Origin: Amphiscolops sp. MND2022
Taxonomy: Eukaryota
Direction of reading: 5' to 3'
NCBI GenBank assembly: GCA_964187785.1
Contig: OZ076409.1
Location: 7,876,001 to 7,940,000 of the forward strand
Length of the DNA stretch: 64,000 nt
The first letter of the stretch is position 1. Each line of letters opens with the position of its first letter. Positions 1,999 through 56,897 of this stretch are shown one piece after another. The notes under the pieces are model-generated. The model was not told the DNA's origin, did no database searches, and saw only the letters and a list, made by a program, of their open reading frames with translations. The position numbers and the translations under genes were made by a program.

Positions 1999-2535
1999 AC
2001 TGTAATGGTGAAAAAGAAAAACGGGGAGTTGCGCTAGCGCCTGCGAGTCTCTCCGTAACCTCCTCGATGAATTTGATGAGCTATTCATGAAACACAAAGC
2101 GGACATCGGTCGGTGCACTATCGCTAAGCACACCGTGGAGGTGGAACCAGGGGCTGTACCGCATCGCGAAGGTGCTCGCCGGATGTCCCCTGAGAAGGCC
2201 GAACGTGCCAATCAGGAGGTGCGGAACCTCTTAGCTCTGGGAATGATACAGCCCTCGCTGTCCCCTTGGGCGAGCGGCATTGGCAATGCCGCTCGCCCAA
2301 GGGGACAGCGAGGGCTGTATCATTCCCAGAGCTAAGAGGTTCCGCACCTCCTGATTGGCACGTTCGGCCTTCTCAGGGGACATCCGGCGAGCACCTTCGC
2401 GATGCGGTACAGCCCCTGGTTCCACCTCCACGGTGTGCTTAGCGATAGTGCACCGACCGATGTCCGCTTTGTGTTTCATGAATAGCTCATCAAATTCATC
2501 GAGGAGGTTACGGAGAGACTCGCAGGCGCTAGCGC
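1966..2535. repeat. Two adjacent perfect fold-back palindromes (34-bp arms centred on 2000; 252-bp arms centred on 2283) interrupting pol
   Basis: 1966-1999 is the reverse complement of 2001-2034, and 2031-2282 of 2284-2535. The ORF track shows the same peptide (MKHKADIGRCT...) on both strands. Confidence 0.95.
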
Positions 2536-4326
2536 CCCATAAATCCTTGACCGCCTTGAGCTGAGATTCTGGCCCAGGAATCGGAGCCATTAGCTCTGGG
2601 TCTGTTCGCTTGCGAATCTCGCGCTCCGATAGTCCTGCCTCGCTAGGGTCAGTAGAGGACAAAAACTCAAATTCTGAAGAAGAGGTTAACTCAGAAGCAG
2701 TGGATAGATTCACTTCACTATAAATTTTATGAACAAAATTTGCACGACTGTCGTCGGCGTCAGTTTTTGTGCGGGTTGTAGTGGGAGAGTCCAAACATTG
2801 AGGTACTGCTTGGTATACTACCGTTATGGGTACTACGGTGCCCAGTTGTACACCACACCGCATGCGTTGAGGGTTGCTGGTGAGATTTATCAGGCTCACA
2901 AAGAGTGTTCCTGTCTCACTGACAGTGGCCACGCTGTCCTCTAAAAAGACGACATTGTGCAACGTAGTGTCAGACAAAGAGGCATTGAGCGCTACGCTTT
3001 GAAAAATCAGCGGCTCTAGTGCATTGGTGACGAGCTTGGCTCTAGCCACCGCTCGTTCGAAAGGTTGCAGGACCAAGTCACTGTCCAAAACGACTGGAGT
3101 AGCTATTGAAGTGTCACCTACCTGTGCGTGAGCATGATGCCACACAGGCTTCACTGGTGCTCGCACCACAATCTTCATAGATGTTAGATCCACTAACACC
3201 TGGTACGAGCGAAGGAAGTTCCGGCCAAGTAGGAAGTCTTCCACACCCATTGCGTCATCTACCACCACAAAGTTCGTTTCAAGTTCGTATCCTCCCAGCT
3301 GGAAATGGATATGTTCTGCGAGGCCGTAGGTCTTTATTGTCTTCCCGTTGGCTGCGTACAGGTCAACTTGGTAGGGCTTAAGGACCGTTCCGGTTCGAGC
3401 GGCCACTCTATTAAAGGCGGAAAACGTCAGTATGGAGACGCCCGAGCCAGTGTCCACCAGTCCTCGCAGCGGGATAGGTGCTGCATGAGGCACCACGAAA
3501 GAGACCACGAGCGACGCACGCTCATCTATACGCGCTTCACCGGTGGGCTCCTGATGATTGATGTTATAGCATTTGAGCTCCTGGGGACCCAGACAAATGC
3601 CAGGGGGAAATACATCCACCACCACACAGGCTTCGAATTTCATATCCACTCCATCCATTGAAGCACAGACTGGCACTGGGGAATATGTTGTCAGAGTCGC
3701 AGACTCTCCCGGAGCGTACCATTCTTTCGGTCGAGGCAACTCGTTTCGTTTGTAGAGGATAGACAATTCGACCCATAGCTTCGCCAGAGTTAGCGTCGGC
3801 CTACGTGTTTGCTCAGCCGCCAGCAACAGGTGAATTGAAATCAGCGTACGTCCTTGCGGATCGAACGTTGTGGGTTCCAAGCAGGTCTGAACCTGCTTAG
3901 CACCACAAGTGAACGTCATCGGAGTGTGGAACGCAGGCGGTTCCGCTGGATGTAGCATCAACACGCGGTCATCCTCCAAAGGTACGGTGTGCGCTGCGAT
4001 GCCAGCTGATTCGACCTCAGCCCATCGATTGTAGGCTAACTCGTCACTGGGCTTTGGCGCATGGGAGTGCTCGCCACATTGCACTTCCGCCTGATCGAAA
4101 AGTCCACAGCTCGTGCATTGATAGATCCCCGGATGACCTTCAAGGATACCATCGGTCGTGTCTTCCGTGGTCACCTTTACGCCCTCTGGTTCGGAGGCAG
4201 TCATTGGTTTTCGGGCCTGGTCGCGATTGGGGCACTCGCGAGCAAAATGTCCGTTTTGCCCACAGTGAAAACAAGCACCTACCGGCGCTCGGGCGGGCGC
4301 TGGGACAGCGGGAGCTGGGACATTCT
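2284..4326 (-). CDS. pol: Gag-Pol middle: CCHC zinc knuckle, degenerate protease-like domain, aspartic protease, dUTPase-like domain, start of RT
   Basis: Frame of ORF 2231-4204 extends upstream to QNVPAP...GACFHCGQNGHFARECP. Contains LVDTGSGVSIL...FLLGRNFL (retropepsin), VLQPFERAV...VSLINLTSNPQRMRCGVQLG, and SPWASGI at the start of RT. Confidence 0.88.
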
Positions 4327-6230
4327 GGGGGGGGGGGCGCCGGAGGTGGCAGGACGCCCTGCGGCATAACCATCTTGTTCGGCGGCAGTGGTGCGAAAGG
4401 ATGAGGTCTAGACCTCATGGCTAATCGGGGATCATAGGGTTGTTGAGGTTGGGTGGGTCTGGGACGATTTCGTTGCAGCTGACGTGTGGTAAATCGCAAG
4501 GACTCCACGGTAGGGGGTTCGGTAAGAAAAGTCTCCGAGGCGTACACTATGGCAAGTTCACGCCTCAACACTGGATCTCGCACACCTTCCATGAAGCGTT
4601 GCAAGATTTCATAGCGTTTGGTAATGATACTTTCTTGCGGGAATCCTTGGCTCCTGAGACCCTCTAAAGCGTCTAAGTACTGCATCCAGTCCTCTTTTTC
4701 TTGTTGGACGCGGCTTTGGAAGGTCTGCCGCACCTGCATACGATTTCCTCCCGCGCCAAATCGGCTAGATAGCAACTCGAACACCTTCTCGGGGGTGTCA
4801 CGTTCAGACTCAGCCTTGTTGATGATGTAGTTGCGAGCCTCACCCTCTAGGTGACCGATAATGCTCCAGGCCCGATCTTCGGCCGAGATTTTGGTTTGGA
4901 CTCTTTTCAAGTATCGCTGCATCACTAAAATCCAGCCATCAATAGACCCGTCCTTAGAGCCTCGATACACGCTGGGTTTGGTTTGAGCCAGGTCACGTCC
5001 CGCAAGCAACGGTGCTAGTTCTTTGGACATTGCTTTGGAAATGGCGGCAGTGAACCTCAATTGCTCGGGAGAAATGACTTCAGCCTCTCCTTCCTTGGGT
5101 GCCATTTCATCAGTACCGTCGTCACTGCCATGCGTAGCTTGCACTGAGAGGTTCGCCACGTCTTCTTTCTTGCGAGTGCTACTCGCACAAGGAGCGCCCG
5201 AGGGCATTCCATCCTCGGCTGTCCAGTCGGCGGTCAGATATAGGGAGTCCGTTCCAGAAGCCATGGTAGGGGCCGTCGCATACGCAGCTCCATCAGTCTG
5301 GGACCCCAGTGTGGCCTTAGTACAGGATAAATCAACTTCGGTGGAAGTATCTAGATAGATAGGTGACATTGGGTCCACACCTTGGTCCCGGGTGGCACTT
5401 CGAACTACGGAGGAGGTTATTTGACTCATCGACGAGGAGTCGTGGGGCCCTCTTACCTGCACCCGTGCAGGTTTACGCTCCACATCAGCCATGATGAGTA
5501 CGGGATCCTTGGCTCGGGTTTCAGGCGTCGTCGACTTGGAGGTGCTAGGCTTCAATGCACTCGCCAACTCGGGTTTTGTTGCCCGACCCGGGTGCGATGA
5601 TTCCGGAATCTTAATTGAATCCGCGACCGGCACACCTTCAGTGGCACCAGATTGTCGTGGGAGGGATCTTTCGCGCCTCATGATGTTGATAGCATTGAGC
5701 ACAGTGTGCATTTGGTTACTCAAATCATTGATCTGGGTTTCCACACGGAGTTCACGGGCCATCAAAAGGTCATTCATCTCACCCATTCTGTGGCCTAGTG
5801 CATCTACGCGAGCACTCTGCGTGTTCTGCGCGGTTCGCAGTTGATCACTGACCTGCAATCCTTCTCGCATCGTTGACTGCAATGTTCTCATATTTTCAGC
5901 GATGGCACGATGTTGGTCATTGCACCCAGCACGAGTGCTATCCAGTTCAGCTAAGGCACGTTGGGTCTCGGCTTGGGCTTCCAATATTGCGGCTTTATAC
6001 ACCGAAGATCGTTGGGACGATGCCACTGAACCTGCCACGCTCCTCGTACGAGGCACCTCAACTTGACGTTCACCTACATTTATCATGGGTGGTCGCACTT
6101 TCTTGTGTTTGCCATAGGCACAAACTCTAGTGTTACCTCGAGTGACTCCAGACCCTTGCGGTCTCGCACAACTCGCGTTCTCCGTGTAGGTAAGATCCTC
6201 GTCCACCGTGATCTGTAGGCGGGAGCTCAT
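4140..6230 (-). CDS. gag: Gag (coiled-coil plus retrotransposon capsid); the C-terminal knuckle lies in another frame after the G11 run at 4327-4337
   Basis: 696-aa ORF with PSVYRGSKDGSIDGWILVMQRYL...HLEGEARNYI...FQSRVQQEKEDW...FMEGVRDP, typical gypsy capsid motifs. Confidence 0.88.
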   Translation of the reverse strand: MSSRLQITVDEDLTYTENASCARPQGSGVTRGNTRVCAYGKHKKVRPPMINVGERQVEVPRTRSVAGSVASSQRSSVYKAAILEAQAETQRALAELDSTRAGCNDQHRAIAENMRTLQSTMREGLQVSDQLRTAQNTQSARVDALGHRMGEMNDLLMARELRVETQINDLSNQMHTVLNAINIMRRERSLPRQSGATEGVPVADSIKIPESSHPGRATKPELASALKPSTSKSTTPETRAKDPVLIMADVERKPARVQVRGPHDSSSMSQITSSVVRSATRDQGVDPMSPIYLDTSTEVDLSCTKATLGSQTDGAAYATAPTMASGTDSLYLTADWTAEDGMPSGAPCASSTRKKEDVANLSVQATHGSDDGTDEMAPKEGEAEVISPEQLRFTAAISKAMSKELAPLLAGRDLAQTKPSVYRGSKDGSIDGWILVMQRYLKRVQTKISAEDRAWSIIGHLEGEARNYIINKAESERDTPEKVFELLSSRFGAGGNRMQVRQTFQSRVQQEKEDWMQYLDALEGLRSQGFPQESIITKRYEILQRFMEGVRDPVLRRELAIVYASETFLTEPPTVESLRFTTRQLQRNRPRPTQPQQPYDPRLAMRSRPHPFAPLPPNKMVMPQGVLPPPAPPPPECPSSRCPSARPSAGRCLFSLWAKRTFCSRVPQSRPGPKTNDCLRTRGRKGDHGRHDRWYP

Positions 6231-6238
6231 CTTTTCTC

Positions 6239-6583
6239 CTAGGGGTGCGCGAGAGCACCCTTCCTCAGCTGCAAGTTCGTTGGTCGCGTTCGAGTTGGGC
6301 CACTCCTCTTCTGCTTCTTTGGCTCTTTCACGACAGGTTTCTTCGACCCATTGCTCGGTTCGACGAGAGCTCCCAGATGCAACGGAACCCTCAGAGGGGG
6401 GACCATGGCGGCCAATTCCTCCTTGCGTTGTTGCTCGATAGTGACTTCGTCAGACATTTCGTCTGAAAAATGCGAACCGTCCATTGTGGATCCTATGGTC
6501 ACCCATGACTGCGAACTCATGTCAAGCTTTTCCAGGCCTGGTAGGACCATTACACACGATGCCAATGACAGAGCAGGTGTCAA
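6239..6583 (-). CDS. Small ORF immediately upstream of gag, unknown function
   Basis: 114-aa ORF in the GC-rich part of the element, ending 8 nt before the gag ATG in a different frame. No recognisable domain. Confidence 0.25.
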   Translation of the reverse strand: MTPALSLASCVMVLPGLEKLDMSSQSWVTIGSTMDGSHFSDEMSDEVTIEQQRKEELAAMVPPLRVPLHLGALVEPSNGSKKPVVKEPKKQKRSGPTRTRPTNLQLRKGALAHP

Positions 6584-20741: not shown

Positions 20742-21145
20742 ATGTCTGTAAGTACCCTCACGTCTGAATGGTTTGCAGCCCCCGTTATAAACGAAAGTGG
20801 AAACATTGAATACATTCCCCTGGATCAAGACATTCTCCAACTCCCAGTTTTTGCCCTTATTCAAGACGCCTGTGAGCTGAACTTCATTCCGGACGAAGAC
20901 ATAAAATCAGGCAATTGGTCGCTGCAAGATGAAAAACTGGTTCTTCAAACGGGATTGGACGTCAGATTGACCAATGAGGGCGTGGTTGCTCTTCAGGTTG
21001 AGATGAAAACGTCACACCCCAAATTCATTTCAGCTCCTATTCTGACTGGATGTCAGATCCAGAGGAAGGATAAATTGGCAGTTATTTCCATACATTATCA
21101 TTTTTTATTGAAAAAACACAACAACAGAGAAGAAAAAGTGTCAAG
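20742..21145 (+). CDS. Sphingosine-kinase-like gene, exon 1 (N-terminal PH-like region)
   Basis: ATG at 20742, open frame to ...REEKVSR, ends at AG|GT. Joins exon 2 in frame. Confidence 0.7.
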
Positions 21146-21146
21146 G

Positions 21147-22334
21147 TAGGACCAGCGTGAAATCACGCGCGAACATGCTCAAAAATCACGCTTTTATTCA
21201 CGCTATTTTGAATCGAAAATAACGCTAAATTCACGGACAAAAAATTAGGCAAATGGCTGAATTCAATTCAATTTTCGGACCATGTTATCCCCCAGGTACA
21301 CCTTATTGGGAACCCCCCCCCCAAGCACAAAAGCACATTTTGGACAATTCAGGGAAAATTTTTTTTCCATATTATTGTCCAAAATAGCAGAAATTCACGT
21401 TTGAAACAAGCTAAAATTGTATAAAAAGGCCCCTATTTCAGCGCAAATTTTGTCCACTGTAAAATCTAATGAGCAACTTTTAACTGACAGTCAGAGAGAA
21501 GTTTGAGAAGTTATTTTTCCCAATTCTAGTTATTTTTCCCAATTCTGCCGGGATGGACGCCGAATAAGCAGTTATGCTTTTCTAAGTCGGCACCCTTTCG
21601 GATACTAATTGGTACTAAAATGGCACCATATTTGTGGTCAAGTAGTGGTAGACTTTAAGCTGTGGTTTCAAAGTGACTTGCTCAAGGTCACAAAGGCCTG
21701 ACTGCTCACCGTTGCTCTTTTTGTTTAGCTTTTCTCCGCCAAATGCGTTGCGTTATTTTTTGTCCTTGACCATACCGCTAAGCTATGGATTAAGGACTTG
21801 CTTAAGGACCAACAATGGTGAGTTGAGAGAGATTCGAACCTGATACAGTCCAGTACAGGCCGAATACTCTAACCTGACAGTCAATGTAATGATTAGTATT
21901 ATGTCGACATCAATTATTTTATTGGGCCAAAATTTCAACGCAAACGATGTCGACATAATGGTATTTGAACCTTCTGTCTTATTCCCCCGCCGCAGTTTTT
22001 GGGGGAAATAGATGACATGGTCCCAATCTTCCTGAACTTATATACAAAAACAGCACTGGTTTGATAATTTCGGGGCCCAACCCTTGGCGGTTTGGAGAGA
22101 CAGTATTTGAAAACTAGAATAGGTACTTAGAAACCATCATTCTCCGCCGATTTCTAGTTCCTTTTCATTGTTCTATGTTGTTCGATTTTCTGGAATAATC
22201 TAGAATACGTACTTCAAAACCATCATATTCCGCCGATTTCTAGTTCCGCTGTAGTATCACGCCAAGTGACGCAGCACTCGCCAAGTGGCTAGTAAATCAC
22301 GCAAATTCAGGCGCGTGAATTTATGCTGGCCCTA
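21147..22334. mobile_element. hAT-like MITE forming a putative intron (21146-22341)
   Basis: TIRs TAGGACCAGCGTGAAATCACGCGC / GCGCGTGAATTTATGCTGGCCCTA; degenerate 8-bp TSD TGTCAAGG (21139-21146) / TATCCAGG (22335-22342). Confidence 0.8.
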
Positions 22335-22341
22335 TATCCAG

Positions 22342-23011
22342 GTACGTTTGCGCAGCTGATAGCCAATCAACTCTCACAGCTTTAAATAAATTTTACAAGT
22401 GCATACAACTTGTGATTCGAGGAGTTAATCTGAACGATATTGAGGATATTGACAACTTCAACTGGGAACCGGAACACGTGCTAGTGATTGTCAATCCAAA
22501 AAGCGGAGACGGAAAAGGCGTCCATATTTTCAAAACTTTGGTTTCCAGAATGCTCGATCTTCTTTGCATGAAATACAAATACGTGGTTACGTCATATTCT
22601 GGCCACGCCCAAAGCTATGCATCTAGGGAGCAACTTACAATTTACAAAGGGGGCATTATATTGATTTCCGGCGATGGTTTATACAGTGAGTTTATAAACG
22701 GGGTTATGGAAAGAATGGACCGGAAGTCCGTGTGTAGAGTCCCGCTGTCAATCATCCCCGCTGGAACTAACAATACCCTGTCGGGTCCTTGCTGCAATAC
22801 AGGGGAGAACACACCAAAAAAGAGTTCGCACCTGTTAATTGCATGTTTGCCTTCCATAAAAGGTCAGGTCCAACACAAAGATCGGATTTTGCAAACCGGA
22901 ATCAACAAAATATCAAAGTGCCACTGCGCTTCATTTCGAGCGATGAACTCTTTGGAAAGTTTTGTAAGAGTAGCGCCGCAAAAGGCATCATATTTTTCTA
23001 GTTTTTTCTAA
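22342..23011 (+). CDS. Sphingosine-kinase-like gene, exon 2 (DAGK catalytic domain); apparent frameshifts after ~22780 near the gap
   Basis: Motifs VLVIVNPKSGDGKG, SGDGLYSEFING, PLSIIPAGTNN of the DAGK/SphK family. The SphK-like continuation (LLQYRGEH...NCMFA) is in another frame. Confidence 0.8.
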
Positions 23012-23028
23012 GGAAAATGACTATGAAC

Positions 23029-23228
23029 NNNNNNNNNNNNNNNNNNNNNNNNNNNNNNNNNNNNNNNNNNNNNNNNNNNNNNNNNNNNNNNNNNNNNNNN
23101 NNNNNNNNNNNNNNNNNNNNNNNNNNNNNNNNNNNNNNNNNNNNNNNNNNNNNNNNNNNNNNNNNNNNNNNNNNNNNNNNNNNNNNNNNNNNNNNNNNNN
23201 NNNNNNNNNNNNNNNNNNNNNNNNNNNN
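23029..23228. other. Assembly gap (200 N)
   Basis: Run of N. Confidence 1.
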
Positions 23229-23662
23229 AGTTTTACTTTAAATGAAGCATCTTTACACATCAAGTGAATCGACCAGTAAAATTGAGTTGTATCGTAACCT
23301 TAGCATCACATTGAGTGAAATAATATCACTTCAAGTAAGCGCTAGCTGCGAACGAAGGAAAACAAGGCAATGCAATTTCAGTTCAAATGAATTAAACTTC
23401 AACTTGAGTGAGCCGATCGCAGCGAATTACCTTTCAGTAGGTAGTGAGAAATGAAACTTTTACCGAGAAAACTTAGTAGAAAAAAATGCTTTTGTTTCAA
23501 GTCGTTTTTCATTGGCTGTCAATGCCATTCGGTATTCAACTAAATTGGATTGCTCTTTTGAATAAATAAAATTTGTGTAATAGAGCAATCTACCAAAATA
23601 GGATACCATAAACTAATTTAATCAGTTTCTCTTTTAATTATGAACAGCTAAAACGTTATATA

Positions 23663-24438
23663 CCCAGTGGAAAAAATGTTGAAACTCTTGCCAAGAATCT
23701 TGCAATTTCCCAAGAATTGAGCGCCAAGAATATGTACGATCTTGCAAGATCTTGCCAAGAACTTCAAGAAAAATGCCTAATTTTTTCGACTGAAAAAATG
23801 CACAAAAAGGGTTTTTAGTACAAAATCTTCTCGGGAAAAACCAAGAATCTTGTCAAGAAATCCAAGAAAATCCAAGAAATGCCAAGAATCTTGCCAAGAA
23901 ATCCAGGAAAATCAAAGAAAAAGGCCTTAACTTTCATTAATATTTCGTAAAAGTAACGCTCTAAAGCATCACTAAAATAGAGAATTTGTGAACTGAAATT
24001 AGTATACTGTATTAGTATACTACAGTTCCAGGTTTAAAAAGACAATATGTCAATTGGTATCAAACTTTGTTTTGTGTTATTACAACGTTATCAATCTGAT
24101 TCGACAATTTGGCTCCAAAATCCTTTTGAGGTTTCCCTGATTTCATATTTGATATTTTTCCATATTTCCGCTGGAAATTTCATTATAAACAAAATTCGTT
24201 CCATACGAACGCTCCTGGTTGGTGTTTGATGGAATGCACAAATTATAACAGACTTGCTAAATGCAGTTCCACCTCCCGGATTTCTTGACAAGAATCTTGC
24301 CAAGATTCTTGTCAAGAAGTTCAAGATTTTTCAACGGTCCAAGATAATTCAAGATTTTATCAATGGTTTCAAGAGGTAACGGGAATTTGCGGGAAAATCC
24401 AAGATCTTGGCAAGAGTTTCAAGATATTTTACACTGGG
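23663..24438. mobile_element. CCC...GGG MITE with CAAGA/TCTTG sub-repeats, 2-bp TSD TA (EnSpm/CACTA-Mirage-like)
   Basis: TA|CCCAGTG...CACTGGG|TA with long imperfect TIRs. Confidence 0.8.
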
Positions 24439-25959
24439 TAGTCTCACAGGGTCCATTATATCCTGTTTTCGAGATCATTTTTTCAAAAAAAAATCAAAAA
24501 AGAATACCTTTTTACAGAGTTTGGTATGTATTTATTAACAAGATCTTCTTGACCGACAACTTGAAAAAAGAAAAAAGAAAATCACTGAATTTCTACATGC
24601 ATATTTAAAATAAATAAAATTTTAAAATGACATGATGAAGAACAGTGTGCACAGAAATATGACAGATACAAATTATTGAGAAAAATTATACAATTATTAT
24701 TTAAAACGGTAAGCCTTCCAACATTTTTGACCAAATTGAGGATTTTCGAAGTCATTCACAAACTTTCCAGTAAAGCAACGTCTAACTTTCAGACAAGAAT
24801 TTTTAGACAAGCTAATTTTTATTAAACAAGCACTCGTTACAAAATCTGATCGCTTAGGCACCCCGAGATCTTGTGACGTAACAGAAATCAGGAACCGAAA
24901 CTTAGTTTACTACTCTGGACTTCATTACACGTGGGGCAACTTAGCCGATATTTACCACAGCAGCAAGAGGTTCACAATCCTGGGAAAGTACCGGATGGTC
25001 CCTCTAGTAATGATCAAGCTGTTACGTAATCGTGGATCCGACGGAAGTCTATGGTACCGTCACATCTCTTCACCCCCGGATAGCGAACTAATCAAACTAC
25101 AGAACAACTGTTTCAGCATGTTTCTAATCACAAACATCAGCAATATTACTTTCGGAGTGACGGCTTGCAAGAACAAATTTCCAGGCTCTGGAGAACTGGT
25201 CCTCTGTTTCGTTAAATACCCCATCAGCCGAAGAAGAATAGTCTCACTAATCCGAAAAGCAATCAGCACAGGTGACGTGATGACCATTCTATCTGATTTT
25301 CATAGGTATTCGAAATCTGAAAATCAAAAAAATCATGCAGTCAAAAATTCTAAGAGTAAAATTCAATCTTAGTAAACTGAAAAGTAAACTGAAATTGAAG
25401 AAAATTTCTTTGACCACGAATGTTTTTACTTTTCTGAAGATACCGGGTTGATCTCAAAAGAAAGAGCATCTGTATCTTGAAAAATCATAGAAGTTAGACA
25501 TGAAAACAATACAGTCATACATCGACCATAAAAAAGGAAAAAAAACATTCAAATCGTACAATCACAATAGTGTGGTCGTTTTAAAAACTTGATTATCTAG
25601 ACATGGAAATTAGCATAACGTAGTCAATTAACCTTCACGTTGATAAAATTGTTGGTTACTCCATCGACAAAACCTCAGCGTCATCAAACTCGCCATTTTA
25701 TGGCATCTTCTATTGTTTTATCAAGGGTTGATTTCGAATGAAGCACCAATTTCCCTGAAAAATGGGCATGACAGTAACGAAAGCGTTGATGTTTAGGTAA
25801 ACTGTAATTAAACATAGTGGTAACTTATATGTAGTTCGAGTATGCAAAGGTCTCAATGTATCCATATTTGATACATACCTCAGGTCAATAAAAAATGATC
25901 TCAAGTTCCATTTTGAGCTTATACAAAATATGCTCATCACAATTAGAAATGTTTGTTAG

Positions 25960-27445
25960 AAACAAGCCAGGAACGCACTCAAGTTGGGGCAGGTACCGCT
26001 CAAGGTTCAAACAGAGTAAAGTGTTGTAACCAGGCCAAAAGACTTTAGTGCTAAAATGTTTATGAAATTTACAGTGACAAAAATACCAGACGGATACGCG
26101 TAAGACTCGAAAACAGCATTTTCCCTAACTCGAAACAACGAAAAACCCAAACTCTGAAAGTTTTTTGAAATTCTTTTTTTTTCAGAGAAAGTCCATAGGA
26201 CCGAAAACTCAAGAGTAGACCCATTACATTCGCAAAACATTTGTTCAACGCCGAAAATTACTTGAAAATAGAGGGTACCCCATTACCGAAAGAGAACTGT
26301 TTCGAAAAAAGTAGCAGTGCCGTAGGGCTATAGGTCTTTTGTACATACTTCCAGAAATCTCTCATCAGTCCCACAGGATTGAAAAAAAGTCGAAAGTTAC
26401 CCTTAAACTTGCGAAAACGGTTTAGCTCAAACGAAAATTTCTTTTTAAAAAATTGAAAAATGAGCAAAAAATTTTAAATCTTCGGTCATTTCATTGAGGA
26501 GTCCTCTATGCTCGCAAAACTTTTCGTTTCCAGTATAATATAGAGGAGAATTATAGCGTGCTTTTACGACTTCTCGAAGAAAACGATATATCGAAACATA
26601 TAAGATTCGAACCACTGCCTCCTCATTGAAAAAACGCAATTTACTTCGTAAAAATTCCGATATAGCCTGCAGGGCCAAATGGGAGCGTTAATGTGGAAGC
26701 TCCGCCTCCTCCTAAGTAAAAGGCAAATCACTCCGGATATAACGTCAAATAATAGACCAGTGTAAAAACTCTTGAAACTCTTGCCAAGATCTTGCATATT
26801 CTTACATACTCCTGTTTACTCTTGAAACTCTTGATAAGATCTTGTTTATTCTTGCTTCACTTGAATTTTTTGATAGTATTCTTGGTAAGAGTCTTATCAA
26901 GAGTGTCAAGAGAATGGATAAGTTGTAAAACAAACAGCAATTTTGTTTACAAGTATTTTGCTGTTGTTCGCACTACCAGCTACACTATCATTCTTTGAAG
27001 TATTGGATATAGGAAAACACAAAGTAGTGAATTTCAGAAGGTGATAGCTTAGTTGGTAGCGCGAACAATTGCGGCATAATAGGTACGCTGATCAAGCTGC
27101 AGTTGGCGGCGAGTTTTGTTTGTTTTCATTCACTTTTGTCAGTTCATCTCTTGAATTTCTTGGCAGGATCTTGCAAGATCTTGCAAATTCGTGGATTTCT
27201 TGGTAAGAATCTTGGCAAGATTCTTACCAAAAAATCCAGGAATATCCAAGATTCTTATCAAGAGTTGCAAGAGTTTTTACACTGGGAGGATATAGCGAGT
27301 ATAGAAAGATTCTTAGGACAGAATAGAAACTTCGAAAATAGAAAATTTATAGAAAGTTTTTTAAAACAGTGAGTTCGCCGGTCTTAAAAACAGCCACTGT
27401 TATAGCCGTTTTCTTTTTCAAAAAAGCGCTGACTGATAATAGGTT
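25960..27445 (-). mobile_element. Degenerate HINE/DINE-1-like copy with a nested MITE
   Basis: Begins AACAAGCCAGGAACGCACTCAAGTTGGGGC and ends AAGCGCTGACTGA, like the other family copies. Confidence 0.4.
26756..27286. mobile_element. CCC...GGG-family MITE, 2-bp TSD AG
   Basis: AG|ACCAGTGTAAAAACTCTTG...CAAGAGTTTTTACACTGGG|AG. Confidence 0.75.
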
Positions 27446-29928
27446 TTAGAATAATCTGCTAAAAAACTTTGAAGTTTTTCAATGACTTCATTCAAAACAT
27501 TCATTTTTTTTCAAAGATCATGTTAGAAAACATGCAAATACAGTAACCATATCCGAAATTTTCCCTCATGGCGTTATCAAAAACCCTTTTTTAAAATCAT
27601 TTTCGACAACTAGAGTCAATACATGGAGCCTTTGTATGAACAGAATGTTAGATCAACCTGGGAATTCAATTCTATCAAGGAATGTTTTTCTCGACGCATA
27701 TAATGCATTTTCGGTTTTCTGTAAAATACTTTAGCCCTATTCAATAAAAATTTCCGGGAAAAGAACTTTTTCACAAAAGATGAGATATTGATAGAAAATT
27801 TCTACTTTTTAAACCTTGATACCTAACTTAACAAATAAATATTTTTATTTTTCAAGAATATAATATTTAAATACTATATTTCACATCCCTGCTTGTTTCT
27901 CCCCGCGTAAATGGGGGTGAAATAGGCCAGACAACTGATATGATGAGAAAAGTGCCGGTTTTTTTTGCTCTTATTGTCTTGAGAACAGCTGACTAGCCAA
28001 TAGTGCACGCGAATAAGTCTTTGAATTCATCCTTTAGCTTCTGACGATGCTGTTTCAAGGTTTTTCTTTCGTTTTTCATCTCTGTCAAATCCTCAGGTCG
28101 GCAGTTACCAATCAATAAGTTGAAAGTTAATCAAGAGTTTTTTAATTGCCTCAATCGATTCTAATATCAGACGGCAATCTCTAGTTGAAACCGCAGGAAC
28201 TTTTCACATGCTGCAAACCTGCATGTAGGGTAATTTTTCTATGAAAAACCTGGAAACTTCCATGATCTTTGGTTGGTAAATCATGTACAATTACAGTGCA
28301 TTTTCCCCTACTGCAATTAATTTAGAAAAAAAGTTTTACTTCATCGCCGATACGATCACTTTGTATTCACACTTCGTTTTCTCAACCACTCATTTGATGT
28401 GATCACCGCTTCTCAAATTCGTAATATTTTTTTTGAAATGTATTGCATTCTGGAGGAGAAAATCAGATGGTTTAAATTTTAGAGTAACACTCAAACCTTG
28501 CTTGAAAATGAGGAAAAAGTTCAGATTCTAACGAACATTCTCCCAGCGAGGTTCACTTCCTGCAACCGACAGAAATTGCCAAAAAAATATTACTTTAAAA
28601 TTTTTTTTTCAGGAACATGCATTTTGTTTCAAAAATGTTAACAGCAAATAACCAAGATATGGCATTCTAGTGACACTCAAAAGATCAGGTGGTATGTATT
28701 ATAGCCGAACAGGACTAAAGACGAAAAGTATTTTAGCAGAAAAAGATTCATTTCTCAATTGTAATTGGCCAAACCACTTTGGCTTCAGTTTGGTAACTAT
28801 TATCTAACAATTAGATGCAATCAGAAGAAATAAATTAATGCATGTAGATTCGGTTATAATCCCAAGCAGCTATCATCCTGTTCGGCCGAAATTACGGCTG
28901 CCAAAAAATCACACTAGTGATTTAGTAGAAGTGACGTCATTGATAACATAAATTTGGATGTAAAATATTGTTTTTAGGATATATTTTTGAAAAATAATAA
29001 TTTTATTTGTTGCTGGTTAACAAAAAATATATTTATTATTTTGTCTTATATTGTGTGGAAAAAGTATATTGCTCGAACAAAGATTTCGTTCGTACATTTT
29101 TTGAACTGCTATTATAACCATCACTAATTTTCCCAAACTAACTTCCTGAATCGATTTTTCTACTCGATTAGTAACTAAATCCGAATACTTAATAACAGTT
29201 GGCCGGGAAATTGAATTGAGTTTCGTGTATTTCGTGTATACGATTATACTAATACATTTGCGTTAATGCTGCTCAAAATGCATTAAATGAAAATCAAACT
29301 ATATTGGCCTAAATACAAATACAGTGGAACAATACAATAAATATATTGTATTGTACAAATCTAAAAACAAACATATTTTATTTTTTTTATTGTCAATATT
29401 TTGAAATGCAATGTATTTTTTCACATCCCTCAACATGGTGATGATCTAGAGATGAGTTTGATTTGAATGGTCATCACTGATGCTGTCAGGTGATCATATG
29501 GGCACCCAAGAGTTCGAAACGATCCCCATCCAGAGTTGCGTGTTCCAGCCGTCAGAGAAGTCCGGAGCTAGTCTGGCTCTGTGTGATGGAGAGCCGCTCC
29601 CTCAAGCCAGTGTGGAAATGCGGATACTCCATAATGCCTATTATCTCAAGTACTAATTCCAGTTTGTCCACTGATGGTATTTCATAGATAAACGTTTTTA
29701 TAGAAATTCGGATATAATTCAACTTTTTCAATGTGTTAATAGTTTTTGTGTTGAAGGACATACTTGACAGACATTGTTTGAATAGACTCTTTGAAAAATT
29801 TGGGTTTCAAAAGTGTCAAAATTTTATTGATTTCGCGATTGCGTATTGGAGAAAAAAGTATTCTGGCGTAGATTTGATTATTTTACATTATATTTCTACA
29901 TTCGCTGCATTGGCTGACTGTAGTTAGT

Positions 29929-30290: not shown

Positions 30291-30874
30291 GGGGCTCTTC
30301 GGTCTCACATAGTTATCTCGATTTAGTTTAAAATGTAAAAAGATCAAAGGGGGGATTTAGACTAGTTTTAAAGCAGACTAGTTTTAGAACTGGACAAAAT
30401 GTGCACTCAAAAAAAACTCGCATGTCCTGCCAGCTCCAGCCGCGCCAGACACACGCGATAATAATTAGGTCAAAAAACGAGTGGAATGTAATGACCGGCG
30501 TGTAATGTCACTTCAGAGCTTGAAAAAGTTGTTTTTTTTTCTATTTTGTTTTTATCTCACGTGCTACGTCAACCAAAACACGCAAGGCGAAAAAATCGCC
30601 TCTGAAATTAAATTTGTGTAAGAAAGACATGGGAAAGCTTTAATTTTTTGCTCAACAACTTCGAATAAAGTTTTTGATACGTAATGAAATCTTCATCCAA
30701 ATATGGTTCGAAGCGTCGCATAAATATCGTCAGTTCGTTCTCACTTACGATGTGCGAGGGTTACTTTGCGCTGAAATATTGATGTGATTGGGAATGATGA
30801 GTGTAAAGAAAGTTGGCAATACAAACAGTAAATTGAACCCCACCACTAAGCCAATACAGTGGACATAATGATAA

Positions 30875-31921
30875 CCCGGGTGGACCCTCTTACTAGCATC
30901 TTGGCTGTCTTGGCAAGATCTTGCCAAATTCTTACTACATCTTGGCAACCATGGATCCCATGGCAAGATTCTTATTAAGATCTTACTAAGATAATACTTA
31001 TTCCAAGATCGTATCTTATCACGATGGACAAAATTTTAAGATTATAAAAAAACACCATACCTTCGGTACAAGCAGCCGAGACTCAATCTAAAGGCTCATT
31101 TCACCCAACAACGACTATTTCTACTCGTTTTCATAATGGAAATGCCTAAACCTGCTGAAAAAATTTTGCATGCAAAAATGCGTGAAAAATTACGATAACG
31201 CAGTCTGGCTTCCAAAATTTTGACGAGAATCCTAATAACTGCTCACCTGTTTAGGACTGAGAAATGCGAATGTACCAAATGAAAGGCCATTTCAAGGGCT
31301 TTCCAAAACTTGTACTTTATCACTCCTGTCGATTCCAGAGGCGGAGAAATATGCCCTCAAACGTCTAGATCCACTATCGGAAAGTTACAAAGAAAAGACC
31401 TTAAAATCCTGAAATTTTTGTGAAAATCATATTTCCAGCTCTCTTTAAGCCTGTTTCAGCAGCCTTATTACTGCTGGAAACGGCGGTCATTGCTCTAATT
31501 TGGGTAATGATTCAGCTCGAGGCTTATCTGACGCCGTCATTGGCGACAGTTTTGCAATTGAAAGAACAATATCGGTATGGAAATGGTTGTAAAAATCATT
31601 CAGTAATTTTGTTTTGAGTGATGTCTAGATTATTTTTTCATAACTCTTAATTTAATGGTTTTCTGATTCTACTTTTTCTCGATATCGAGCAGTTCGTAGC
31701 ATTTTTTTCTTGCCATATTCGGCTTCTTAGTTAGATTTTTCTTGCCATATTGGGCTTCTTAGTAAGATTTTTCTTGGAAACATGGCTCTCTTGATAAGAT
31801 CTTACCATGGCATCTTGCAATTCTTGGCAATATCTTGTCACGATCTTAGCTAAGATTTTCCAAGATCTTGGCAAGATCTTGCCAAGATCTTACTAAGATA
31901 TCCATGGAGGGTCGACCCGGG
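30875..31921. mobile_element. CCC...GGG-family MITE inserted in copia 3' LTR, 2-bp TSD AA
   Basis: Intact LTR reads GATAACTGAA; interrupted LTR reads GATAA|CCCGGGTGGACCCTC...GAGGGTCGACCCGGG|AACTGAA. Confidence 0.9.
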
Positions 31922-32499
31922 AACTGAAAATAGTAGGAAACTAAATCAACAATCACCCAATATTTTAGGACTAAGATTTACATATTGAAAATAACCTCTC
32001 ACCAAATAGCAAACTGTATCAATCATGGCGTCAATTATTTGGTCTGAGAATTGAAGCAAGATATGAACGAATGCTCAGTCATCGCGTGGAGAGTAAGGAA
32101 AGGCAAATTGAGTGCATGCAGAGTGAATCAAAGTGACCGAAGTACTGTAGTGTAAATGCAAAAAGTTGACTGGTTCAAATTAATACATTATATGGACACC
32201 AGACATGAAATGCACAGTGAATAGAAATGAGTGAAGTAATGCAGTGTAAATGCAAGAAGTTGACTGGTTCGAAATGAATACGTTATGAGAAAACCAGACT
32301 TAAAATGGACAATGAAATGCACAAAACTGACTGCACAATGAGGTCAATTTGCACAATAAGATGATAATGACGAAATTTTGAAATTTTTGAATTAAACAGA
32401 CATGCACAGCAAAATGACAATATGATGTTCTTTATTGAGACAAGATTTGAAACATAAATGAATTGTGACAGAAACAATTAGAAGGATCATCAATATAAA

Positions 32500-35400
32500 A
32501 GAATATACTAATAAAAAGAAACATAAATTGTCCATTTCTGACCAAATTCTGCAAGTTTTTACCACAATTTGCACGCTGCTTTGTCAAAATATCTGCTAAT
32601 TGCAAATAAGATGGGATCCATTTCATAATCAGGGGGTCGTTCTGATCACTCGTAAGCTGCTTTAGGGAGCCGATATCAACTCTCAACCGTTTTTCTTGTA
32701 CAGTTTTCGTTGATTTGACGGATTCTATCAAACTTTTATTGTCTACAAGGGCGGTCTCAGGAATTTGTGAGCCAGTCAGCTCTTTCAGAATCTTCTCGAG
32801 AATAAATACTCTATCGATACCATCCAGACAAGCCATTGTTTCCGCCGCTAGAGTGCTTTTGACGATTTGTTTGAGTTTGTGAGACTGCCAGGTCACAATA
32901 GCGCCACGATCACCCATTTCCGGGTTCCCAATCACAACTAAATGGCCACCTTGTGTACCACCGTCTTCCAGATTTCCCATGAGGCATCCGAAAAGGAATA
33001 AAGCCGCCACTTGTCGACTGCTCCAAGGTCGGGGAAGAAAATACATGGCTTTGGGCCAAATTTGACAGTTCTCACTAGCTTGGTAAGGACTACAAGATCT
33101 CCAAATGTACTTTTCGGAATTTTACTGACGAAGGAAGTTCTAGCGAAAGCAACTTCTGGAATTGCCTGGACAGCCAACCACTGTAGCTGTCCCAGAACTT
33201 TTCTCATGGCGTTTCTTCTTTTCAGTCGTTTCTAGAACTTTCTATTTCAGTCGTGGGATCAGTTTTCTTACGATCTCCTGTCGATTGGATTCCCACTAAA
33301 TCTATTTTCTCGAGATATCCCTCCAATCTAACGTTGATTCCAGTACTAGTGCGTTCAATATCCATGCCCAAGTAAATGTAAGGTAACGTTATCTTGGTTC
33401 CAATGGCAAAAATCATTTAGGGGGTTAACCACATTCTTGTAAAACTCAGGACAACCAGCTGTCCAAAAATCATCAACATAAACACATATCAGTCCTAACA
33501 AGTCAGAACCTTTCTTCAAATAAAACAATGACGAGTCCAAAGGAGAAACTGTGCAATTCAACGCAACTAATTCTTGTCGTACTCGATCATACCAGTGTCT
33601 GGAAGCATCTAATAATCCATAAACGCTCTTTTTGAGTTGCCAAAGACCAGTTTCTTCACTTTCAGGAGGAGGTACAACAAAAACTTGTCGTTCCAGTGGC
33701 TGTACTTGGACGAAAGCTGTTTTTACGTCCAAAACTTCCGAGTTCCAGCTTTTTCTGGAAGCTAAAAGGGTCATCATTAGCCTGAAAGTATCTTTTCCAT
33801 AGGTGGGCGAGTCTGTTATCAAACTTTCCGGACTCTCTTGAAATCCTTTCGTCACTAATCGAGCTTTCAATTTTCCGTCGGACTTTCGCGTAAGAATCCA
33901 TCGTGTCGCAATTGTCGTCTGACCACGATCAGGGACTCTTTCATAGACATGACTTGAGTCCAACTTTTGAGCTCACCCTCTTTTGCCTTGGCAAACTCGT
34001 CTTCATCGATCTCATTTGTTACGTAAGCTGTGTCTTGCTGTTTTTCTCCGATTAGTGACCAGGATTCTACATCCTTTTCAAAACCTACAGGTCCAGTTTT
34101 GCCTTTCATGTGCTCAGGACTGTTATATTGAAATATTTACCAATTTTTGTTCTTTCCGGTACTTTTTCCTGCTTTTCCTATTACCGGAAAATTCACTTCC
34201 TGAAGAACATTCATATTTCGTTTTAAAGCGTATATCTGCATTTCTTCCAGGAATCTGAGAAGTGTCAACGAGTGGTTTGTCACCATGTAAAGCACAATGT
34301 TCAGTGAAAATTACCGATGCTGCATCAGGCTCGAGTGATTCAAGCGTCAGCGATGACAGTTCTGACGAAAGTTCGTTTTTAGCCAATTCAGACTCAATGT
34401 TCGTCGAACCTGCAGGACAGTTCGGAGTAGCTACAGGCTCCGTCTGCTGTTGGTCGATAGTCTCAGAAACACGGTATTCATCACTTCCGACCAACCGCAA
34501 TCTGTTTTTATGCGTTTTTACGACATTCCCTCCATTTCTCAAAATTGCAACAACGCCATCCATTCCAATAATTGTTTCCGGTCCATGCTATTCATCAGAT
34601 TCCGCTCTTTTTAAGAAAATTCGATCTCCAGTGACAAAAGTGTTTCATTCATTCTGAGCTTTGCTTTCAGGGCTTTTTTGATACGGCCATCGTTCTTCAT
34701 GCTAGTATACTCTTCCCGGGATCGTTTGAGCACCAACAGATGCTGCCTGAACTCCTCGCTAGTTGTCAACTTTTCTAAACCTGGCGGACCGAGTTCCATG
34801 ACGTTTGGTAATTGCGGATTCTGTCCAAAAACTATCTGCTGGGGAGAAAAACCATCCTTATTACTCAAACATTTTTTTGCGAAACAGCAATAATGAACCA
34901 GAGTTCGCTCAGGGAGTTTGAGATTATTGTCGTTTTGCAATTTTTCGAACAATGACCTGAGAACAGCATTGTGACCCTTGCAAACACCGTTTGACCACGG
35001 GCTTTCAGCAGCTGTTGTCTTTATGAAAATGCCATAATTTTCCGCCAAGGATCGAAAGCCACTATTGTAAAATTCTCGGCCATTGTCGGTCAATGTAGAA
35101 CCTGGCACACCAGATATGCTTATCCACTCTGTCGGAAACGCATGAATTATAGTTTCGCTTGTCATATACAATTCGCGCACTGCTGAACCTTGAATAAACA
35201 TCAATAAAATGGCAATAATACACGTTTTTTCTGATATAATGGAGGTCGATGGCGACAGTTTCGTTGAACTTGGAAGCCAATGGTAACGATACCGCTGGTT
35301 TCGCCCTGGGTCGATTGTGTTTGAGGCAAATATTGCAGTTTTCAAGGACGTTTTGAACGATAGTTCTGTGCACTTTGAAATTCGACGATTTTATGAGTCT

Positions 35401-36728
35401 CAGAAGGCGATCTTGTCCACAATGACCAAATTGGCGATGAAGTTTCATGACGTCTCGTTCAGTCAATTGTTTGTCGTGGGAGAAAAACGAGAAAGAACTG
35501 AAAACAATCTCTTTCATCTTCATAGCTAAATGACCAGTGGAGAGTTGAAATAATCTGATACTATGGCCCAAAATTTCCATTTTTTCAATATCCAGATCAA
35601 TCTTGGCGCCCATTTTTTTCAGTGATTTGGCACTTATGAGCAAGGGCAACTCCGTGTTGATGACCTCAGTGAGAATAAAGCACTTCAGATTGCCTATTTA
35701 CAAAGGTATTTGTAAGTTCCCAAACTCCTGAACGATTTTCCACCACCAAAAAGATTGGAGACATTTTTCGGCAATTCATATTCAAGTGATTCGCCCAATT
35801 CGGCAGAGAACTGATTGACCCAATCTTTTCCTGCCACTGATCTTGCACACCCAGTGTCAATTATTCCCAGTGCTCGACATTCTTCAAGCATGGACTCTGA
35901 TACGGTGGCAAAGGTCAAAAAGACTTTTTCTTCGTCACTTCTCTGTTGTTGCAAATCAGGACAATCTTTCCTCCAGTGAAACCGGGAGCCACAATTAGCG
36001 CTAGTAGACACTTGTCCGGATGCGTTCACTGGGTTTGTACCGTTCTGACGGATCTGTGAACTGCCAAAATTCCTTTTAACATTGAATCTTCCACGTCCTC
36101 AACCGCAATTAGTCCAGTAGATCGGGCTGTCTTCATTTCCTTCGTCCATGGGTGTTACAAAAGTTGGTTCGGGGTTTATCGAAGGTACGTCTCCTGTATC
36201 ACATTTTACGCAGCTCGTGAAAATTCTACGTAAAGACGGTCTCATGGCATCAAAGTTGAGATCAGGTGTGGCAGACAAAACCAAATGTCAATCCTTTATA
36301 TCGAGACCGGCACAATGAAGCAGTTTGCAAGCAAGAACTTCTGATGGGACATCAATTTTGAAGTTTTTTTAATTCTGCGTAGAGTCTTTCGAAGTCTTGT
36401 TTGTATTCGGTCATATTTCTATCAAGTCTTGCTACTGTTTCGAAATTGACAAAGGCCTCAAATGTCGATCGGTCTCCTCACGACCGAATTTAGATTTGAG
36501 CTTGACCAATAACTTTGTCAAGCCGTCCTCCGCATTCAGTTCTACACTGCTGAACTCAAGAGCTGCTTCTCGCTTCCTACCAGTAAGAGACAAGGCAACC
36601 GCAGGGCCTTGCTTTGCCTTGGCAAGATCTGTCACTGCCACCCATAGCTGTATTTCTGCATTCCAGCGCTCGAAAGGCACTTCATCATTCCATAGTGGTG
36701 GGGTTATTGAAAACTTGGTAGAACTCAT
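32500..36728 (-). pseudogene. Copia gag-pol, broken by many frameshifts and stops
   Basis: PPLWNDEVPFERW (gag), CGSRFHWRKDCP, IIDTGCARSVAG (PR), LHRQFGH...C..C and TDNGREF...SPWSNG (IN), KLKARLV...YVDDF (RT), QLADILTK (RH) spread over many short ORFs. Confidence 0.9.
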
Positions 36729-55542: not shown

Positions 55543-55634
55543 TTCTTTGCGTCTTTGTTATTTCCTCTTTCTTTGCTTACTTCTTTCCCATAGCTTCCCT
55601 TCACCCCTTGTGAGTTGCTGAACTCTTCTTGACG

Positions 55635-56897
55635 ATGTCTGGAGACGACGACAACGATCAGCAGATTTCCCCCGCCACCCAAGAAGATCCCAACGGCACC
55701 CACACTCCCGTCACAGGTGGTAGTAAACCACTCCTCAGTAAGTCCACTAAATTTTCCTTCGTAGGATTGGCCGACACGGAAAAGGAGTGTAAACGAGATG
55801 CTTATCGGCGATTGAAAGAAATGGAAAAAGAAGTTAAAAGATTCAAAATTGAAGCAGACCTAGATTCTGACGACTCCATGGTTCTTGAAAATGAATCCAA
55901 AAGAAGACAAAAACCTTTATATGAAAAATCACCAATAAAACCTGAAAAATTCCCTAGTAAGGACTATAACCGCTGGGAAAATTGGATAAAACACTTCAAG
56001 GCAGTTGCTAAAGCCAATGGATGGAATGATGGTCAAAAAATTGCAGCAATGCCTACTTGTTTAACATCATGGGCCATTGAAGAATTCGAAACTATCCCCC
56101 GAAGGTATATCGAAAAAGAACCAGGTTGTTATTCGCCGCGGTTTGACGAACTTCTTGAGGTTCTTAAACCCAAAATGCAACAGTATCGCAGTCAGCGAGC
56201 CACGCGGGCCGAATTTAAAGCCGTTAAACAATGGGAAAATGAGAACCTAAGAGAATTCTCGAGAAGAGTACGTCACCTCGCCGATATAGCCTTTCCTGAG
56301 AAACCCCTCCGGGAAAGAGAACGCGACATGAGAGATCAATTTATCGAAGGACTTTTTGATTCGCGGGTGCAAATCAATTTGTATGAAGACGAGCGTGACC
56401 GTGACTTCGGTGAAACTTTGCAACGTGCACAGGAACTCGAAATAATCCACAAGACTCAAGAATCGAGAAAAGACCGGAAATTCGATAAACTCCGCTACTC
56501 ACAAAATGATCTCGAGTATTCCGATACAGTAAGAGCTGGCTATTCAAACAATAACCAAATTGAAGAAAAATTTGCAGCTATAGAAACATCGTTAATCAAT
56601 GTGGCAAGTCGTTTTGATCGTTTCGAAAATTCAATTTGTCAACACATCTCCAAGCAAACTGAACAAATCTCGAAACTAGCCAACTCAACAACCAGCCAAA
56701 TTGAAACCCTCGTGCAAAGTATAAAAGACATGTCATCTGCGATGGTAGGAGCGGCGGGAAGTTCGCAACAGTCGGCTGGTGGGCAGTCTCAAAATGTAAA
56801 AATAACCCAACCCCCGCCTGAAGAAGCAGAATGCTTTCATTGCAAATCATATGGCCACTACGCTCGACAGTGCCCGAACAGAACCAAGTCAAAATAA
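55635..56897 (+). CDS. gag: Gag protein (420 aa): capsid, coiled coil, C-terminal CCHC knuckle
   Basis: KPEKFPSKDYNRWENWIKHFKAVAKANGW...QWENENLREFSRRV...DQFIEGL and CFHCKSYGHYARQCP; uninterrupted ORF. Confidence 0.93.
   Translation: MSGDDDNDQQISPATQEDPNGTHTPVTGGSKPLLSKSTKFSFVGLADTEKECKRDAYRRLKEMEKEVKRFKIEADLDSDDSMVLENESKRRQKPLYEKSPIKPEKFPSKDYNRWENWIKHFKAVAKANGWNDGQKIAAMPTCLTSWAIEEFETIPRRYIEKEPGCYSPRFDELLEVLKPKMQQYRSQRATRAEFKAVKQWENENLREFSRRVRHLADIAFPEKPLRERERDMRDQFIEGLFDSRVQINLYEDERDRDFGETLQRAQELEIIHKTQESRKDRKFDKLRYSQNDLEYSDTVRAGYSNNNQIEEKFAAIETSLINVASRFDRFENSICQHISKQTEQISKLANSTTSQIETLVQSIKDMSSAMVGAAGSSQQSAGGQSQNVKITQPPPEEAECFHCKSYGHYARQCPNRTKSK

Follow-up and report, generated by a model that had tools for sequence, protein, structure and literature searches.

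In the acoel Amphiscolops sp. MND2022, the reading frame of a kinase gene runs into a transposable element and meets a stop codon at the element's first bases. The question raised by this locus is whether the insertion destroyed the gene or became one of its introns. The window analysed is a 64,000-nt stretch of contig OZ076409.1 (assembly GCA_964187785.1, positions 7,876,001 to 7,940,000, forward strand), and positions given below are those of the window unless another locus is named. A first-pass annotation, made from the letters of the window, had proposed a transposon-driven intron gain in a host gene. This proposal is supported by the assignment of the element to a hAT family, by an empty site in relatives, by constraint on the gene, and by the presence of other copies of the family at apparent introns. 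We consider it highly probable that a hAT MITE, 433 bp long at the time, entered a coding exon and is excised precisely, as a newly formed GT-AG intron; this would account for the conservation of the gene.

Structure of the insertion

The element occupies 21147-22334 (1188 bp) and ends in outer TIR arms of 24 nt (21147-21170 and 22311-22334, 83%). It lies between two copies of an 8-bp target site duplication (TSD) on the + strand, TGTCAAGG at 21139-21146 and TATCCAGG at 22335-22342, which are identical at 6/8 positions. Recomputation returned the same coordinates, element length and 8-bp TSDs as the first-pass annotation. The last G of the left TSD copy is the G of the donor GT, positions 6-7 of the right copy are the acceptor AG, and position 8 of the right copy is exonic. 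The predicted intron 1 (21146-22341, + strand, 1196 nt, phase 2, GTAGGA...TATCCAG) consists of this G, the element and 7 nt of the right TSD copy, and nothing else. Both the GT-AG removal of 21146-22341 and the stop that it avoids had been described earlier, and both hold in the window frame: excision gives a continuous ...EEKVSR|YVCAADS..., and without splicing the kinase frame ends at TAG 21147-21149. The frame is shifted if the element alone is excised, and is restored only by removal of the element plus one TSD length.

The two differences between the TSD copies had been interpreted as optimization of the acceptor, from AAG to CAG. This interpretation is unsupported: the differences (GTG/GTA, TCA/TCC) fall at third codon positions and are synonymous, so that V-S-R is encoded by either TSD version, either may be ancestral, and the proposed change lacks polarity. 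A CTRAY motif is a branch-type motif found near acceptors. No motif of this type was found in the last 70 nt of the window copy, and the other three cases described below (L064, L216 and L168) keep one.

The element had also been described as a single 1188-bp MITE of hAT type. The type stands, but the structure is composite, as seen in searches of the element against its own genome. An outer hAT MITE has its left arm at 21147-21276 and its right arm at 22032-22334, each including its TIR. Between these arms lies a second TIR element (21277-22023), a high-copy repeat with GGACCATGT ends and its own 8-bp TSD (21269-21276 and 22024-22031, 7/8 identical). The second element in turn contains a repeat on the - strand (21494-21873), flanked by a 10-bp TSD (21484-21493 and 21874-21883) and present in many own-genome copies at 86-87%, which by eye appears SINE-like, with a tRNA-like head. 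Rfam gave no match anywhere in the element, including this repeat. Subtraction of both nested insertions leaves an outer MITE of 433 bp. The divergence of the window copy is 13.7% from a consensus built on 20 other long copies, whose own values range from 5.3 to 12%, although the consensus mixes subfamilies, so that divergence from it overstates age; the best own-genome match of the window copy is 84%. Judged from these comparisons, the insertion is old.

In the proposed mechanism, the MITE would have entered the exon at an 8-bp target ending AGG. The donor would have been formed by the last G of the left TSD copy and the first T of the element, and the acceptor by the AG inside the right copy, and splicing would have been effective early enough for the gene to survive. 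The two further elements would later have landed in the intron, enlarging it from 441 to 1196 nt.

The interrupted gene

The predicted gene model consists of four exons on the + strand, encoding 501 aa with no internal stop. Exon 1 (20742-21145) runs from the ATG to ...EEKVS plus the AG of an Arg codon; its start, MSVST, matches the related proteins P0047 and P0048, and 39/83 residues are identical to P0047 over aa 1-84. Exon 2 (22342-22862) encodes a DAGK_cat domain (PF00781, E 6e-18), and its best PDB match is human sphingosine kinase 1 (E 4e-15). Exon 3 (24858-25271) and exon 4 (29490-29656, including the stop codon) are identical to P0047 at 76/138 and 27/54 residues, respectively. Exons 1, 3 and 4 gave no Pfam match. 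The whole model aligns to XP_075239891.1 and XP_063715242.1, annotated as ‘sphingosine kinase 1-like’ in Convolutriloba macropyga and Symsagittifera roscoffensis, so the gene name first given to the locus agrees with the annotation of its orthologues. With a DAGK_cat domain carrying the SGDG motif and full-length orthology to annotated sphingosine kinases, the gene is classified as sphingosine kinase 1-like, and its product is a predicted enzyme. The assembly contains 11 kinase matches, of which the others are at most 35% identical, so there is no close paralogue among them. Four ceramide kinase-like paralogues (L024, L026, L027 and L029) have open frames of 390-574 aa, and hence few or no introns.

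The gene contains two further introns, both GT-AG, phase 1 and on the + strand. Intron 2 (22863-24857), which contains an assembly gap, is apparently common to the species of P0043, an ENA protein entry, and is absent from the P0047/P0196 and P0048 ORFs. Its site at 22863 coincides in position (AAAG|GT) and in phase with a break in the distant paralogues L022, L023 and L025; the presence of this position in these paralogues, yet its absence in the named acoel orthologues, indicates either parallel gain or repeated loss. Intron 3 (25272-29489) carries a perfect 13-bp inverted repeat (25277-25289 and 29465-29477), with CAGGTGA at both borders, is absent from the Convolutriloba- and Symsagittifera-type ORFs, and is possibly an older TE-derived intron. 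Assignment of introns 2 and 3 to TE families was rejected, since their outer ends matched the window alone and the end pattern gave 3 matches vs 1 in the control. A repeat detected in intron 3 was likewise rejected as a terminal family, since its end lies 59 nt inside the intron. A CAAGA-rich palindromic MITE-like repeat occurs in several copies in and beyond the gene's introns (23661-24440, 26757-27285 and 30860-31925), and retrotransposon ORFs were identified by Pfam (gag/protease, RVT_2, integrase and zinc knuckle) at 2231-6449, 32432-35697 and 55614-56897 of the window.

Empty site, constraint and competing explanations

Absence of intron 1 from relatives, which the first-pass annotation had named as a check on its reading, was found at the protein level in three entries. 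P0043 (253 aa, 80% identical) contains EEKVSRYIC in one ORF, and its similarity to the window is lost exactly at intron 2. P0196 (511 aa, from a 5.5-kb ENA contig, with 2 differences from the RefSeq protein) crosses the site uninterrupted, as does P0048. P0048 and P0198 are two halves of a Symsagittifera-type protein, split at another position, which indicates that such ENA entries are unspliced ORF calls. The paralogue L030 also crosses the intron position in one frame. The site thus appears empty in the orthologues, as known from protein entries that we judge to be unspliced calls, pointing to gain of the intron. P0043 was obtained by a search among proteins of near length, while the search among longer proteins gave no homologue, and no related locus was found in the metagenome contigs searched. 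Similarity to P0043 ends upstream of a CAG|GT-like site at window position 20997 (Q|VEMK), and this break suggests a separate intron gain in that relative.

Constraint on the gene was assessed over aa 85-283, in which the window differs at 1 of the 88 sites that are invariant in P0043, P0047 and P0197. Had the gene died at insertion, the expected number of changes at these sites would be 16.5 at 9% neutral change and 24.4 at 13.7%, and none of 3000 simulations at either value gave two or fewer; at lower neutral change, P is 0.003 at 5% and 0.07 (not significant) at 3%. In a relative-rate count over the 139 sites at which two outgroups agree, 1 was changed in the window alone and 6 in P0043 alone. 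The probability of 501 stop-free codons is 0.007 at 9% neutral change and 0.0007 at 13.7%. Taken as a record of the time since the insertion, these counts indicate strong constraint on the gene. With a frame that meets a stop immediately unless it is spliced, such constraint is most simply maintained by splicing, and the element is likely removed from the RNA as a new GT-AG intron.

A related but unlikely explanation is that the intron was gained and long spliced, with death of the gene, or damage to it, following only recently. Exon 2 contains a -1/+1 frameshift pair (22783-22855, + strand), located in a GGG run and a CC run, which scrambles ~23 codons of a segment conserved in three orthologues, and the presence of several other kinase paralogues among the 11 matches is also compatible with loss of this gene. 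Against this, the ancestral frame of the scrambled segment is still 22/24 identical to P0043, and the 501 codons are without a stop. Both changes alter homopolymer length and lie 170-250 bp from a 200-N gap (23029-23228), as would fit an assembly error, which we prefer to the alternative of a recent real change. If the frameshift pair is real, the gene may now be impaired; whichever its origin, the comparisons above place the gene under constraint for most of the time since the insertion.

The exact excision favoured here also has to be weighed against splicing of the element mainly at other sites, such as the upstream GT at 21140, an alternative donor that is in frame with a net change of -6 and the loss of two codons. 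This is very improbable: of the S-R codons that it would remove, P0043 retains both, and the two named orthologues also have the R. In addition, the usual donor consensus is better matched by AG|GTAGGA. We give hardly any credence to immediate death of the gene upon insertion, with a GT-AG fit arising by chance. The fit alone is weak evidence of splicing, because an exact option is present at 8/63 other sites of the family, with 7.7% expected from target preference alone; however, the single change at 88 invariant sites where 16-24 are expected, the relative-rate count of 1 (window) vs 6 (P0043), and the two later nested insertions that mark the MITE as old largely refute this explanation. Equally hard to credit is a jump of the MITE into a pre-existing intron, most of which it then replaced: secondary insertion is common, and several sampled copies are located near exon ends inside introns, but three related ORFs and L030 read through the site, and intron 1, holding only a G, the element and seven TSD bases, retains no non-TE intron sequence and hence did not arise by later insertion into an older intron.

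The hAT family and its copies in other genes

Exact matches to the 24-mer of the outer TIR number 60 in the genome, and a looser TIR pattern has 289, each with 0 in the control. For pairing of ends, 100 of the 289 looser matches were listed and 120 loci were fetched, among which 59 unique copies have both ends and an 8-bp TSD (two or fewer mismatches), perfect in 37/59. As is typical of MITEs, the TIR is short and many copies are non-coding and of similar length, 42/59 being 246-433 bp long. A later addition of five paired copies gave 64 sites in all, with 40 ends left without a partner. Two long copies, L164 and L165, have both arms in common with the MITE, and an ORF between these arms in L164 matches Dimer_Tnp_hAT (PF05699, E 6e-9) in Pfam. 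The transposase remains are broken in both, and no intact partner was seen among the copies examined; L164 and L165 are candidates for the autonomous lineage of the family. Based on its 8-bp TSDs, TIRs and transposase remains with the same ends, the family is classified as a non-autonomous MITE of the hAT superfamily, in line with the initial assignment of the window element. L165 has the same TSD 8-mer as the window; it was rejected as a related site, since the flanks are unrelated and the match is a coincidence. The copy at L154:1500-2246 has a TSD, AAGGTGAG, which is a full donor consensus, and may have duplicated an existing splice site.

The first-pass annotation had pointed to other TIR copies whose ends coincide with intron boundaries as relevant to its reading, and three such copies match apparent introns. 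In L064, located in an EamA-type gene, the TSD is GGTACTTC and removal is exact, in-frame and GT-AG, with the donor within the TSD and the acceptor composed of the last A of the TIR and the first G of the TSD. Its site is read through by the paralogues L199 (EamA, E 6e-8) and L200, and a lead to the identity of the L064 gene is provided by Atlas (EamA, 0.86). This gene (L064 / L194-L197, G000:C1:102.36 Mb) is broken at least four times over a region that L199 encodes in a single 250-aa frame; only one of the breaks is the MITE. In L216, located 4.4 kb downstream of the HLH exon of a bHLH gene on the same strand, the register is as in L064, the TSD is 7/8 and removal is exact. The intron-side TSD copy reads GTAAG, whereas the exon copy is bound to retain a C, since an A there would make the stop codon TAA; the donor change in L216 is therefore polarized. 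In L168, located between the Ras and BTB exons of a RhoBTB-like gene, the donor is G|T and the acceptor A|G, with a net gain of 6 nt. The fragments beside the L064, L168 and L216 copies gave no match in Pfam.

The window, L064, L216 and L168 have the same arm at the 5' side in 4/4 cases and unrelated flanks; similarity among them reaches both exon-intron borders, in the same orientation, and does not extend into the exons, as in introners. Three registers are present among the four: AG in the TSD (window), a TSD starting GGT (L064 and L216), and G......G with +6 nt (L168). The four candidate introns belong to predicted models in four gene families, and the empty-site comparison covers the window and L064. 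The EamA-type, bHLH and RhoBTB genes likely also splice out their copies of the family. A further copy, L070, has a +3 option and 53/64 open codons, and may be a fifth case. The copy at L109:1500-1905 (G000:C2:3.57 Mb) has a 9-bp-looking duplication and breaks up an EF-hand-like stretch; its ends offer no in-frame splice option, and it may be a counter-example. No neighbouring exons were recognized beside L109, and neither L070 nor L109 was placed in a gene.

Among the paired sites, 4/64 look exonic and spliceable. A splice option flanked on either side by 40 or more open codons is present at 4/63 sites (window excluded) vs 0.88 expected, although one of these, L101, looks intronic by eye. A first count gave exact splice options at 13/59 sites vs 9.5% from random flanks; with target preference modelled, the count is 8/63 vs 7.7% (GT only, P 0.11), and a family-wide excess of exact options was rejected. 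In-frame options occur at 22/63 sites, compared with 14.7% if targets are random and 23% if the target preference of the family is modelled (P 0.02), in a model built from the same sites with which it is compared. We conclude that the family is predisposed to spliceable insertion and that selection filters the exonic copies. Its TA...TA ends would contribute the T to the donor GT and the A to the acceptor AG, with the G coming from the target; selection would keep those few exonic insertions that splice in frame, making the family an opportunistic intron maker.

In Gozashti et al. 2025 (PMC12130899), an introner is defined as an element that is removed from exons by splicing, through signals that it encodes or co-opts, and that accounts for four or more introns in genes unrelated to one another. 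The name introner given to the window element holds in this loose published sense, although most sampled copies of the family are not introns; the sister cases just reach the four-intron threshold if RNA confirms them. Supplement file 8 of that study includes hAT introners that co-opt both splice sites (Panicum virgatum fam14, Styela clava fam1 and Fusarium oxysporum FOLYT1), the last with ‘8bp TSD, TA/TA termini’ (PMC12130899). The acoel family is like these hAT introners in its superfamily, 8-bp TSD, TA...TA ends, splice sites derived wholly or partly from the target, and few introns. It is unlike them in being old (5-14% from consensus), in its acoel-type animal host, in its mostly non-coding copies, in the three registers among four cases, and in an intron enlarged by nested elements. 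Two types of introner are distinguished in Gozashti et al. 2022 (PMC9860276), the Florenciella type, which co-opts both sites, and the Aureococcus type, which adds codons; the window, L064 and L216 resemble the former, and L168 the latter. The introner families of that account are recent and gene-enriched, whereas the acoel family is old and its sampled copies are mostly non-coding. Burst-type introners (Micromonas and Aureococcus) have mostly intronic copies and a consistent register, neither of which was found here, and the acoel family is thus not of this type. The maize element Ds is itself a hAT element. Transposon insertion at the proto-splice site AGGT, including cases of Ds, is covered in a review (PMC3443670); as in that model, the target AGG followed by T is duplicated in the window and yields a donor and an acceptor, while, unlike in those cases, the TIR provides the T of the donor, and the gain is no laboratory allele but old and subject to selection. 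The hAT route to introners is thus already known. No report of an acoel introner was found in the literature searched, including 12/14 supplement files of PMC12130899, and by this search the acoel case is new.

The kinase gene is one ORF in the Convolutriloba-type, has one other break in the Symsagittifera-type and another apparent break in the closest relative, and has three introns here. It is possible, though we hold the idea only tentatively, that the acoel lineage has repeatedly gained introns from several DNA-transposon families. If so, a hAT family in which about one third of insertions are spliceable in frame on one strand would be a standing source of introns in an early-branching bilaterian, with gains that can be dated by nested elements. 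Few intron gains in animals are well documented, and in most of these the donor cannot be traced. The kinase gene combines a donor family, a target duplication, an empty site in relatives and continued constraint, and is accompanied by three sister cases. An ordinary hAT family with TA ends would make introns by borrowing a G from the target, and the acoel family may serve as a test bed for whether introners begin as opportunists.
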